43,982 nt of DNA, taken from the UHGV virus genome UHGV-0179801; one strand, 5' to 3'. Under the pieces are notes generated by a model that was given only the letters and a program-made list of their open reading frames with translations, did not search any database and was not told the DNA's origin. Source of the DNA: a virus. Positions 2,082 through 29,211 of the stretch are shown here, piece by piece (position 1 is the first letter of the stretch; each line of letters begins with the position of its first letter). A program made the position numbers and the translations under genes.

Positions 2082-2142
2082 TGGGGAATCCTCTTAGTAA
2101 ATGAAAAGAGGGACCGAAGTCCCTCTCGATTATAGCTTAACC

Positions 2143-3192
2143 TTAAGACCCGACACCAGTTACCAGGAAGGCAATCGGTACATGCTTACGTTCAACAACA
2201 CGGTTCCAGTTAGAGGCGTTCGCCAGGTCCTGCCAGGAAGCGGAGCGCGGGGTAGTCTCGGTGCCGTTGCCAGTGATTACTGCGCTGGTGAAGCTGTAGC
2301 CAAACGGATGCAGCAACCAGGTCTTACGGGTCCACAGGGTTTCAACGCCGCCGCCATTGCCGCGGGACTCTTCACGCTCATAGGCCAGCGGATTGGTTGG
2401 GTTGCCTTCACCATAACCGATAGCGCCGTTGCCGAAGATGATGGAGATGAACTTACGGCTAGGGCCAGTACCGACTACGGTCATGCTGTCGTCAACAATC
2501 ACGCGGTAGCCCTGGTAGGTGGCGAACAGGGTGTCGTTGTCAGCGTTTTTGATGAAGTCGATAAGCTGCTGCTTACGGGCCTGCGCGTATACGAAGCTGT
2601 GCATAGCGATAGTGCCCAGCACTTCACCACCGTTGCCCATCAGCGCGTCACCCATAGTCTGGGTAGCGTCGATGAACGCGCCTGCGTCGAAGCCCAGAGT
2701 AGAGGACACGTCGATTACCATGTCGTTCTGCTCGTGATATGCGTCGGTGGCGGCTACGTTGTCATTGTACAGACCGAGCGCGGTGGCGATCAGACGGCGT
2801 TGTGCCTGGCGCTGCCAGAAGTTATCCAGGCGGGATGCTACGGATTGCAGCGGGTTCTGGCTGGTCAGTTCTACCGTCAAATCCGCCTGACCAAAGCCTT
2901 CGTTCAGGTACGCAACGCGGGCCATCATCTCACCGGTCTGCACATTACGCGGGGTAGCGATGTCCTGGTATACGTCGTTCGAGTAGTTCGGCTCGATAGA
3001 GGTATCAATCGCTTTCCAGAAAGGAATATTAGCGATGTTGGACGGGCCGCGGGCAATCTCGGCAGCGTACGGAGTCGGAGTCAGAATACCGGACTGGAAG
3101 AACGCGGTTTTTTCTACCGGGTCCTCGGTCATATAAGATGCCAGGACCGGGATGTTGCCAGTTACGATATCGCCGATAGTGGTAATTGCCAT
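2143..3192 (-). CDS. major capsid protein
   Basis: 349-aa ORF directly after the scaffold gene; AGGAA RBS; size and position typical of an HK97-fold capsid protein. Confidence 0.7.
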   Translation of the reverse strand: MAITTIGDIVTGNIPVLASYMTEDPVEKTAFFQSGILTPTPYAAEIARGPSNIANIPFWKAIDTSIEPNYSNDVYQDIATPRNVQTGEMMARVAYLNEGFGQADLTVELTSQNPLQSVASRLDNFWQRQAQRRLIATALGLYNDNVAATDAYHEQNDMVIDVSSTLGFDAGAFIDATQTMGDALMGNGGEVLGTIAMHSFVYAQARKQQLIDFIKNADNDTLFATYQGYRVIVDDSMTVVGTGPSRKFISIIFGNGAIGYGEGNPTNPLAYEREESRGNGGGVETLWTRKTWLLHPFGYSFTSAVITGNGTETTPRSASWQDLANASNWNRVVERKHVPIAFLVTGVGS

Positions 3193-3194
3193 TA

Positions 3195-3896
3195 TTATTT
3201 CCTCAGGGCTTTAAGTTGCCGTTCAAATTCGGCAGGGTTCGATTTATACAGAGCTAAACGCTCCGCTTCACTCATGTCTTTAAACGCTGGTGCGGCCCCG
3301 CCGCCTTTGCTACCGGAAGCCCCGCCGCCGGAAGCTGCATTTGCTTTAATCAAATGCGAAAACGCTTTGTGTTCACGCAGATATTTGCGGAACTGTTCCG
3401 GGTCAGTCGTGATTACGTTACCGTCTGCGCTGACAAACTTAGTAACCACATCATCGCCTTCGAACTCAGTCTTAACGAACGGTGCAAGGATGTCCACTGC
3501 TTCCGGGGTGATAAAGTCACCTGCGAAAGAGCCTAACACCGCTTTACGTTCGCTACCGAGAATGCGCTCTGCCATTCTGGAGATGCGGCCATCTTTCTCG
3601 GCTAACACCGGGTCATACTGGCTACGAATCGTCTTTTCGAACTCGTCCATCTTACCAGCGGCTTTTAACGCCTCCTGGTGGGCACGCTGCCGTTCTTCTT
3701 CGGCCTCTTTTGCTTTACGAGCGGCTTCTTTCTTCTCCGCAAGTAATGCTTCCTGATTAGCCTTAAGCCCGGCAACTTCTTTCTCAATCAGCGCCTGAAC
3801 TTCTTCAGCGGTGAACATTTTCGGTGCGTCACCGCCGCCAGATTTATCTTCTGCTCCAGCTTCTTCCTGGAACGGATAACGTAAAAAACGATTCAT
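3195..3896 (-). CDS. scaffolding protein
   Basis: Ala/Glu/Lys-rich predicted coiled coil (EALLAEKKEAARKAKEAEEERQRAHQEALKAAGK) just upstream of the capsid gene. Start uncertain: ATG at 3896 chosen; track start 3950 is a TTG. Confidence 0.6.
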   Translation of the reverse strand: MNRFLRYPFQEEAGAEDKSGGGDAPKMFTAEEVQALIEKEVAGLKANQEALLAEKKEAARKAKEAEEERQRAHQEALKAAGKMDEFEKTIRSQYDPVLAEKDGRISRMAERILGSERKAVLGSFAGDFITPEAVDILAPFVKTEFEGDDVVTKFVSADGNVITTDPEQFRKYLREHKAFSHLIKANAASGGGASGSKGGGAAPAFKDMSEAERLALYKSNPAEFERQLKALRK

Positions 3897-3978
3897 AGTC
3901 AGTATGTCCCCTGGACGTTGGAATCCGGGCCACCCGGATTTACATGTCAAGAATAAATTATTCCAACATGCAAGGCAA

Positions 3979-28078: not shown

Positions 28079-28270
28079 ATGAAATACGAATATGACCGTA
28101 AACCAGCACGTGACATCGTACCTGGCGACATGATTTTCAATGTTAAGACCCGCCGTCCTGTTGCCGTTGATACGGTGTACGTAGAGTCGAACGGTAAACT
28201 GGTTATCGAAGATGTAACCGGTAATATTACGGCGTTTGGGCGTAAAGAGTTAGTTCTGGTGGCGAAATGA
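28079..28270 (+). CDS. hypothetical protein (63 aa)
   Basis: Track ORF; AAGGAATTGAGAA RBS; ATGA coupling to the methyltransferase gene. Confidence 0.45.
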   Translation: MKYEYDRKPARDIVPGDMIFNVKTRRPVAVDTVYVESNGKLVIEDVTGNITAFGRKELVLVAK

Positions 28271-29211
28271 ACTATTACAATGAATGGGATAAAGGCGCTG
28301 CCGCGTGGCTGCGTGAATTAATAAAACAGGGGCACATACCTTTTGGAGTTGTAGATGAAAGAAGTATTACCGAAGTTAAGCCAGAAGACCTCGACGGATT
28401 CACCCAGTGTCATTTTTTCGCTGGTATCGGCGGCTGGCCTCTCGCGCTCAGACTTGCGGGAGTTCCGGAAGATGCGCCTCTCTGGACGGGAAGCCCGCCT
28501 TGCCAACCGTTTAGCGCGGCGGGAAAGCAACTTGGACAGTTCGACCCGAGACACCTCGCGCCAGTCTTCCTCGACCTCATCAGCGAGTGCCGCCCTCCAG
28601 TCCTCTTTGGGGAACAGGTTGCGCCAGCAATTGCAAAATCGTGGATGTGCGATTTACAAACTCATCTGGAAGGAGAAGACTACGCCGTCGGGTTTGCTGT
28701 ACTCCCAGCTTGTAGCGTCGGCGCACCGCACAAAAGAGAACGACTCTTCTTTGGTGCGCACGAATTGGCCTACACCGACAGCGAACGACTACAAGGGGAG
28801 TGGAGAGACAGTGATTCGCAAGGACGGGAAGGACAGAACATTCGACAGGCTGGACTACTCAACGGAGCAGGGGCTGAAACTGACGAGTTGGCCTACTCCT
28901 CGCAGTGCGGACGGAGAAAAGAACGTGAGAACATTAGAGGGGTCGCTATCAGAGATTCGGAGGAAGGGTGGGCCTCAGGACGTAGCGCAAGCTGCTGCAA
29001 TAACACAGCCAATCCGCATCACGGCTTCTGGTCAGACGCTGACTGGCTTGGATGCAGGGACGGAAAGTTCAGGCCAGTTGAATCCGGCACATTCCCGCTG
29101 GCTAATGGGATACCCGCCAGAGTGGGACGATTGCGCGGTTACGGCAATGCCATCGTCCCGCAAGTAGCCGCTGAATTTATAAAGGCGTTCATGGGGGCTG
29201 TAAATGAGTAA
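28267..29211 (+). CDS. DNA (cytosine-5)-methyltransferase, reading frame apparently disrupted
   Basis: Frame 1: motif I FFAGIGGW (28411-28437), motif IV GSPPCQPFSAAGKQ (PCQ), motif VIII PHKRERLFFG, motif X GYGNAIVPQ (29137-29163). Frame 2 (track ORF 28355..29167): NWPTPTANDYKG, SWPTPRSADGEK and motif IX RWLMGYPPEW (29099-29125). Confidence 0.6.
   Translation: MNYYNEWDKGAAAWLRELIKQGHIPFGVVDERSITEVKPEDLDGFTQCHFFAGIGGWPLALRLAGVPEDAPLWTGSPPCQPFSAAGKQLGQFDPRHLAPVFLDLISECRPPVLFGEQVAPAIAKSWMCDLQTHLEGEDYAVGFAVLPACSVGAPHKRERLFFGAHELAYTDSERLQGEWRDSDSQGREGQNIRQAGLLNGAGAETDELAYSSQCGRRKERENIRGVAIRDSEEGWASGRSASCCNNTANPHHGFWSDADWLGCRDGKFRPVESGTFPLANGIPARVGRLRGYGNAIVPQVAAEFIKAFMGAVNE

Follow-up and report, generated by a model that had tools for sequence, protein, structure and literature searches.

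A probable alpha/beta C5-cytosine DNA methyltransferase encoded by two overlapping reading frames in a Kagunavirus-like coliphage

What does a C5-cytosine DNA methyltransferase locus encode when its conserved motifs are divided between two reading frames? The question is raised by the viral genome UHGV-0179801, a stretch of 43,982 nucleotides (nt), here called the window, that represents a Kagunavirus-like (K1G-like, Guernseyvirinae) coliphage. On its plus strand, frame 0 contains an uninterrupted open reading frame (ORF) for 314 amino acids (aa), here termed alpha (28267-29211), and a second ORF for 270 aa, termed beta (28355-29167, +), is nested wholly inside it in the +1 frame. Beta starts upstream of alpha motif I and ends with a TAG codon (29165-29167, +) located 44 nt before the alpha stop; the overlap amounts to 813 nt, and beta covers 86% of alpha. 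In frame 0, motifs I, IV, VI and VIII are followed by a low-complexity stretch (28762-29007), by the element GFWSDADWLGCRDGKFRPVE and by the motif X region RVGRLRGYGNAIVPQVAAEFI, and the +1 frame reads WPTPTAND from 28766, WPTPRSAD from 28889 and WLMGYPPEW at 29099-29125. A first-pass annotation of the sequence had described this division, with motifs I, IV and VIII, the low-complexity stretch and GNAIV (29143) in the frame starting at 28267, and with two WPTP units and WLMGYPPEW in the +1 ORF 28355-29167; it was right about each of these features, about their positions and about the split as such. It had explained the split by assembly error or inactivation, by a single recoded chain passing from frame 0 to +1 and back to 0, or by a methyltransferase-deficient variant. 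The divided motifs and the selection on the +1 middle stood up to our analysis, whereas none of the three explanations did.

In our view, the locus probably encodes an alpha/beta C5-methyltransferase by means of two overlapping genes on the same strand. We draw this conclusion from a gene layout like that of the enzyme M.EcoHK31I and from the division of C5-methyltransferases into a large and a small domain, which matches the two ORFs. Both ORFs are conserved, selection alternates between them, each frame avoids stop codons where the other one is selected, and the start codon and the ribosome-binding site of beta are conserved. We infer that beta is translated, that it associates with alpha and determines specificity, and that the resulting enzyme is active.

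Conservation and selection of the two reading frames

The arrangement is by no means confined to the window. A megablast search with 1.5 kb around the locus matched 403 phage records, mostly from Salmonella, Escherichia and Klebsiella phages, and 79 related loci from independent projects in IMG/VR, with protein identities of 43-90%, served as a comparison set. In practically all of these 79 loci, open stretches measure 650-1260 nt in the +1 frame and just ~150-250 nt in the +2 frame, WPTP and WLMG[FYL]P are present in the +1 frame only, and GNA[IV] is present in frame 0 only. These findings bear directly on the explanation that two compensating indels either are an artefact of sequencing or assembly or have inactivated the gene in recent times. 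It is true that the motif layout resembles an internal segment moved by one base and that rare proteins (P0001, P0002, P0003, P0004, P0241 and P0287) fuse the alpha N-terminus to the beta frame. However, the two-frame arrangement recurs in the 403 phage records and the 79 metagenomic loci, down to 43% identity, in hundreds of independent phage genomes both ORFs are open, avoid stops and show purifying selection, and the rare fusion proteins are single-member clusters that lack motif X. We give this explanation virtually no credence.

The frame under selection was determined by comparing the window gene with 78 homologues and binning mismatches by alpha codon position. Along the gene, selection follows the order alpha, mixed, alpha, beta, alpha, beta, alpha; counted as one block, the alpha part ahead of the first switch to beta covers nt 1-492. 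In nt 1-270 of the gene (28267-28536), third positions vary and only alpha is selected. Over nt 271-450 (28537-28716), the variability of alpha third positions drops to the level of first positions and both frames are constrained, and it is because of this drop that we assign a dual constraint to a helix-hairpin encoded by beta at 28580-28732. Variation in nt 493-756 (28759-29022) falls on the first codon position of alpha, equivalent to the third of beta, and the selected frame is that of beta. The frames then alternate at short intervals, with alpha-synonymous changes, including CGN/AGR exchanges for arginine, in nt 757-816 (29023-29082; alpha selected), beta-synonymous changes in nt 817-858 (29083-29124; beta selected) and again alpha-synonymous changes in nt 859-945 (29125-29211; alpha selected). 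When two distant clades were used as independent references, the same alternation emerged. Counts of distinct substitutions in three collinear relatives agree with this picture: 14 of 18 within nt 1-270 leave the protein unchanged in alpha alone, and 29 of 38 within nt 493-756 do so in beta alone, which bears out the earlier proposal that the +1 frame holds the genuine, selected middle of the enzyme.

Stop codons were evaluated against alpha-synonymous or beta-synonymous codon shuffling, with the third frame as an internal control. For the window gene, the +1 frame stays open upon alpha-synonymous shuffling with P=0.011 in the upstream part and P=0.019 in the middle; upon beta-synonymous shuffling, frame 0 is open through the middle with P=0.002, and the third frame contains stops as expected. 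From a point ahead of motif I as far as motif VIII, not a single +1 stop is found in any locus other than the indel-bearing contigs L014 and L030, versus 1-4.8 expected. The leader of beta contains 0 stops versus 63 expected (59 unique loci), and the control region directly upstream of the beta ATG contains 167 versus 131 expected. Conversely, the alpha frame runs through the middle with 0 stops in 55 unique loci, versus 2-12 expected in each, and the third frame again matches expectation.

The start of beta is likewise conserved. Measured from motif I, the beta-frame ATG is located at either -59 nt (gtagATGa, as in the window, 28355) or -41 nt. In the window, a Shine-Dalgarno-like GGAG (28345-28348, +) lies 6 nt upstream of the ATG. 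Loci of the -41 class typically have AGGAGCATTGCAGATG upstream, with the spacing AGGAG-N8-ATG, and here the AGGAG, a canonical Shine-Dalgarno sequence, is usually built from a pair of alpha codons, AGG (rare Arg) and AGC (Ser).

If ribosomes made a single polypeptide by way of two programmed frameshifts, one of +1 near 28756-28765 and one of -1 near 29117-29142, this would explain why selection in the middle acts on the +1 frame, and joining the frames in this way yields the canonical order of motifs I, IV, VI and VIII, target recognition domain (TRD), and motifs IX and X. The data on start and stop codons speak against such a recoded chain. Neither site contains a slippery sequence, a nearby frame-0 stop or a homopolymer, the last of which the first-pass annotation had already found missing, and the junctions differ between clades. 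The +1 frame is stop-free for ~400 nt upstream of the first proposed shift, beginning with a conserved ATG and Shine-Dalgarno sequence, and this upstream part includes the conserved beta helix-hairpin. Frame 0, in turn, is stop-free through the middle and open to 29211, its openness is selected, and selection on alpha returns at 29023-29082 and at 29119-29142 (RVGRLRGY), in segments that a single chain would leave untranslated. The selection pattern would require four shifts, not two. We therefore consider a doubly shifted chain very improbable.

A related possibility is that some ribosomes shift by +1 after motif VIII and produce, besides alpha, a chain composed of the alpha N-terminus and the beta C-terminus, either instead of free beta or in addition to it. 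Indels that fuse alpha and beta parts in one frame do occur in loci L014 and L030 and in proteins P0001-P0004, P0241 and P0287, where either the beta start is joined to the PCQ frame or the alpha N-terminus is joined to the beta C-terminus. Natural fusions that match the chain in question and are in frame (P0001, P0002, P0241, P0287) imply that an alpha-N/beta-C chain is tolerated in at least some genomes. On the other hand, the fusion contigs and proteins are probably errors or decaying copies because all of them either lack motif X or are singletons. The fusion proteins are rare singletons without motif X, a conserved shift site is missing, and a shift of this kind leaves unexplained the conserved upstream ATG with its Shine-Dalgarno sequence, the avoidance of stops in the beta leader and the beta helix-hairpin. 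Such a product is improbable, though somewhat less so than a double shift.

Distribution of methyltransferase motifs between alpha and beta

Alpha has the fold of a C5-methyltransferase together with its catalytic residues, and we take it as the catalytic subunit. The protein scores 60.3 bits against Pfam PF00145 (cut-off 22) with residues 68-166, a match restricted to profile positions 60-162; it also matches phrog_363 from end to end (1.7e-88) and aligns to M.HhaI in a PDB sequence search. Foldseek retrieved 1dct, 2i9k and 1fjx (M.HaeIII/M.HhaI) with the AlphaFold2 (AF2) model of alpha (E 3e-7 to 1e-6, probability 1.0, ~190 columns); residues 170-264 are predicted to be disordered, and only the catalytic core and the last helix of the model are usable. 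Motif I (FAGIGG, 28417-28434, +; S-adenosylmethionine binding) is invariant or near-invariant in relatives and aligns to motif I of M.HhaI. Motif IV (PPCQPFS, 28495-28515, +) contains the catalytic Cys79, and P78, C79 and Q80 are all invariant. Motif VI (FGEQV, 28606-28620, +), the equivalent of the ENV motif, aligns to FMENV of M.HhaI and reads E-Q-V in place of E-N-V, with E116, Q117 and V118 invariant. Motif VIII (HKRERLFF, 28729-28752, +), the equivalent of QxRxR, aligns to QKRERIY of M.HhaI, with R157 and R159 invariant. As all catalytic residues of alpha are invariant in alignments of relatives, the suggestion of a methyltransferase-deficient variant finds no support.

Downstream of motif VIII, the character of alpha changes. 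The alpha-frame linker, which coincides with the low-complexity stretch at 28762-29007 (+), is open yet not conserved as a protein; its variation falls on alpha codon position 1, and its predicted local distance difference test (pLDDT) values are 24-39. The variable region with the TRD and motif IX, expected between motifs VIII and X, are absent from alpha, where residues 166-247 are unconstrained and predicted to be disordered, and motif IX-like sequence is confined to the +1 frame. Conservation of alpha resumes with GFWSDADWLGCRDGKFRPVE (29023-29082, +), which is dominated by alpha-synonymous changes and kept in relatives of 43-50% identity, and continues in the motif X region RVGRLRGYGNAIVPQVAAEFI (29119-29181, +). 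Here, RVGRLRGY (29119-29142) is invariant in the alpha frame, R285-N294 are invariant or nearly so, and a C-terminal helix (residues 298-313) is predicted with pLDDT ~80. Motif X thus resides in the same chain as motifs I-VIII: the segment GYGNAIVPQVAAEFI (29137-29181), in which GNAIV starts at 29143, belongs to alpha and is invariant.

Two further observations concern the alpha chain. An NEWD...AA element (28267-28310, alpha residues 3-13) lies ahead of motif I and aligns with the motif II region of M.HhaI, YSNEWDKYAQE, which suggests a permuted motif order at the N-terminus of the alpha family. A chimeric single chain of 313 aa was also run against Pfam, as were both frame segments, and motifs IV-VIII alone were detected; the chimera is therefore no better than alpha.

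Beta, the proposed small-domain or target-recognition subunit, matches phrog_1008 (2.3e-60) and is a separate coding sequence (CDS) in phage K1G. Its N-terminal leader (28355-28564, +) is kept open and shows only alpha-type variation; it is unconstrained as a protein and predicted to be disordered (pLDDT ~46-63), as are the first 70 residues of beta in the AF2 model. It is followed by a conserved helix and beta-hairpin (SAALQSSLGNRLRQ...YKLIWKEKTTPSG...ASAHRT, 28580-28732, +) that overlaps alpha motifs VI-VIII and is modelled as a helix (residues 76-94) and two strands (101-109 and 115-123) with pLDDT 82-89. Then come WPTP cassette A, WPTPTANDYKGSGETVIRKDGKDRTFDRLDYSTEQGLKLTS (28766-28888, +), which is under purifying selection in the beta frame and recurs in other combinations in related phages, and WPTP cassette B, WPTPRSADGEKNVRTLEGSLSEIRRKGGPQDVAQAAAIT (28889-29005, +), for which two helices are predicted (pLDDT 82-88) and which is the most widely conserved cassette in the family consensus. 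The motif IX-like segment QLNPAHSRWLMGYPPEW (29075-29125, +) is dominated by beta-synonymous changes. Across 131 beta sequences, conservation is complete or reaches at least 90% at L242, P244, H246-G252, P254 and W257, and the invariant positions cluster in G..LNP.HSRWLMG.P..W.

The region between the beta hairpin and motif IX (28766-29005 in the window; compared in loci L001-L030) is put together like a mosaic from WPTP cassettes of 30-45 aa; at least seven types of them were distinguished, and closely related phages join these in different combinations. This mosaic is the reason why megablast matches to the gene are split into two or three pieces at ~90% coverage.

The beta family is large. 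One search yielded 4,545 homologues, none of them with a Pfam domain, and another at least 9,603 representative clusters (50% identity) across phages of Proteobacteria. Among the best 147 beta representatives, only two contain the PCQ motif, and these two lack motif X; single-chain relatives with the catalytic motifs, WPTP, WLMG and GNAV in one frame were absent from this set.

Several points weigh against the interpretation of the locus as a two-gene enzyme. The loci are phylogenetically related, and the per-locus probabilities that the +1 frame stays open (0.0015 to 0.32, mostly below 0.1) can therefore not simply be multiplied. Both structural models are poor, with a mean pLDDT of 52.6 for alpha and of 63 for beta. 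The link between beta and motif IX consists in a short motif resemblance, QLNPAHSRWLMGYPPEW and R.LT.RE.ARLQGFPD.F being alike at the motif level only. A profile of the 131 beta sequences found nothing in the PDB, the 131 family members found nothing in Pfam except for one natural fusion, beta found nothing in NCBIfam, and Foldseek with the beta model gave no match in the PDB below E=0.4. Finally, no proteomics or ribosome profiling data showing translation of beta were found.

In view of this lack of detectable homology to any solved structure or Pfam family, it might be argued that the function of beta is unrelated to methylation, e.g., DNA-binding or anti-defence, and that alpha, which keeps all large-domain motifs, is a complete enzyme on its own, with relaxed or no sequence specificity. 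But all loci and phage records examined have beta nested in a methyltransferase gene of this very family, the segment of beta with the highest invariance mimics motif IX and is placed exactly where motif IX lies relative to motif X of alpha, alpha has neither a conserved variable region nor a motif IX of its own, and in the precedent, M.EcoHK31I, both chains are required. We consider an unrelated function unlikely, although it is the least unlikely of the alternatives to the alpha/beta enzyme.

A proposed alpha/beta enzyme and its known counterparts

According to PMC3404938, the large domain of monomeric C5-methyltransferases comprises motifs I-VIII together with motif X, and the small domain comprises the variable region and motif IX. 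In the alpha/beta enzyme that we propose, alpha would represent the large catalytic domain, with motifs I, IV, VI and VIII, a stop-free linker, the GFWSDADWLGCRDGKFRPVE element and motif X. Beta would be translated independently from the +1 frame of the same mRNA, starting at the internal ATG with its own Shine-Dalgarno sequence, and would consist of a disordered leader, the helix-hairpin as a possible docking element for alpha, a variable set of ~40-aa WPTP cassettes as a putative target-recognition region, and the motif IX-like sequence QLNPxHSRWLMGxPxEW. Joined, the two chains would restore the two domains found in a monomeric enzyme such as M.HhaI, and they would methylate the phage DNA as an orphan, anti-restriction methyltransferase. 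As to the evolutionary origin of the overlap, two ancient compensating indels are plausible.

The closest counterpart is M.EcoHK31I from Escherichia coli (recognition sequence YGGCCR; Lee, Kam & Shaw 1995), which PMC2836561 and PMC3404938 present as a C5-methyltransferase made of two polypeptides. Its beta gene lies wholly inside the alpha gene in another frame (PMC2836561), alpha carries motifs I-VIII as well as motif X, beta carries motif IX, both chains are needed, and the N-terminus of beta is required for association with alpha (PMC2836561, PMC3404938). The phage beta gene is likewise wholly nested in alpha in another frame, namely +1. The phage enzyme would thus be of a kind already known from M.EcoHK31I, to which we liken it by its gene layout. 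The differences are considerable. The predicted TRD of M.EcoHK31I is placed in alpha, whereas in the phage locus the variable region of alpha is unconstrained and the WPTP cassettes are part of beta. In contrast to M.EcoHK31I, the phage beta begins ahead of motif I and takes up 86% of alpha, and the nested design is family-wide and phage-borne. M.EcoHK31I is part of a restriction-modification system, and the phage enzyme is an orphan in a replication module. The alpha polypeptides are similar in size, as that of M.EcoHK31I is said to comprise 309 aa in the 1995 paper, compared with 314 aa here.

Another natural heterodimer, M.AquI, is split within the variable region, as stated in PMC3404938. 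Its genes are separate and essentially sequential, and its small subunit has motifs IX and X, whereas the phage genes are nested and motif X belongs to alpha. With M.HhaI and M.HaeIII, alpha shares the large-domain fold, the catalytic motifs and the domain logic; these enzymes, however, are single chains, and the phage equivalent of their small domain is separate and without detectable similarity in sequence or fold. Bacillus phages SPR, phi3T and rho11s possess orphan C5-methyltransferases with tandem target-recognising modules of ~40 aa that differ between related phages. The WPTP cassette mosaic resembles these modules, with the cassettes as putative TRDs, but in the Bacillus phages the modules lie in the frame of a single polypeptide. 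In phage lambda, Rz1 is encoded on the same strand in the +1 frame of Rz, and the two products form a complex, the spanin. The function of Rz/Rz1 is unrelated and Rz1 is short, whereas the methyltransferase genes overlap by 813 nt with alternating constraint.

Genomic context, variants and annotation of the locus

The methyltransferase locus is part of the phage replication module, where it lies between a gene for a VRR-NUC nuclease and a gene for an SNF2 helicase. Its neighbours encode a DNA polymerase, a VRR-NUC/Holliday-junction resolvase-like nuclease, a small hypothetical protein and an SNF2-type helicase, and a cognate restriction endonuclease is not found among them. With such neighbours and without an endonuclease partner, we classify the enzyme as an orphan phage methyltransferase, and its role would most plausibly be the protection of phage DNA from restriction. 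The stop codon of alpha (TAA, 29209-29211) lies within the beginning of the helicase gene downstream, the ATG of which is at 29204, an arrangement that suggests translational coupling within the module. Elsewhere in the window, an ORF for 551 aa (2101-3756, +) runs antisense to the genes for the major head protein (2143-3192, -) and the scaffolding protein (3195-3950, -). PHROGs contains no match to this ORF, which may be a chance antisense ORF, though a very long one.

Some relatives of the locus carry additions. In three loci (L028, L029, L075) and four proteins (P0033, P0051, P0090, P0306), an insertion of ~500 nt is present between alpha RDGKFRPVE and the motif X region; in L028, this region corresponds to nt ~790-1380 of a 1443-nt alpha ORF. 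The insert encodes an HNH endonuclease in the beta frame, directly after motif IX of beta, and the beta tail is repeated after it. In two divergent versions of the insert, all of its ~160-190 codons can be read in the alpha frame without a stop. The insert looks like a mobile HNH gene that was nested in an alternative frame without breaking alpha. In locus L027, the alpha ORF is 1845 nt long and its C-terminus is fused to a Dam-like N6-adenine methyltransferase with a DPPY motif; the nested beta ORF is retained, and the product is predicted to be a bifunctional C5/N6 enzyme.

In the databases, beta is usually unannotated, and most phage records among the matches list just one gene of the pair. 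Rhodobacter phage RcAqua and Vibrio phage Vaitephage each have an annotated methylase CDS with the beta match in its +1 frame. Phage K1G has annotations for both ORFs, "C-specific methylase" (ORF31) and "Mte8-like protein" (ORF30). The reverse case is Pseudomonas phage PMG1 (HQ711985, L084 in our set), in which the annotated CDS is beta itself, described as "similar to putative Mte8-like protein", and alpha is unannotated; its N-terminal part appears out of frame. A literature search for Mte8, Guernseyvirinae methyltransferases and overlapping or heterodimeric phage methyltransferases brought up no paper describing this arrangement in phages, nor could the origin of the label "Mte8-like" given to K1G ORF30 be traced in it. 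Because most of these records annotate one gene only and beta has no Pfam or NCBIfam model, the family of entries named "DNA cytosine methyltransferase" is probably incomplete, and alpha may be inactive when expressed alone.

A broader generalization may be considered, although we hold it only tentatively and rate its prospects as slightly short of even. The nested alpha/beta layout may be the general architecture of a very large Dcm-like family in phages and prophages, with a separate recognition domain built from exchangeable WPTP cassettes, and M.EcoHK31I may be one domesticated member, the TRD of which was wrongly assigned to alpha. If this generalization is true, thousands of database entries lack a gene that is essential for activity. 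The alpha/beta enzyme as such would extend what began as a curiosity in 1995 to a widespread family, and it suggests a new look at where the TRD of M.EcoHK31I lies. The overlap itself, which is unusually long (813 nt), ancient and located on the same strand, and which shows a clear mosaic of constraint, offers a good natural model for the question of how one sequence accommodates two proteins. For the phages, the generalization would mean that methylation specificity can be changed or multiplied by cassette shuffling while the catalytic subunit remains untouched, and in the conflict between phage and host, anti-restriction methylation could be retuned in a simple way if its specificity resides in a detachable subunit made of cassettes.

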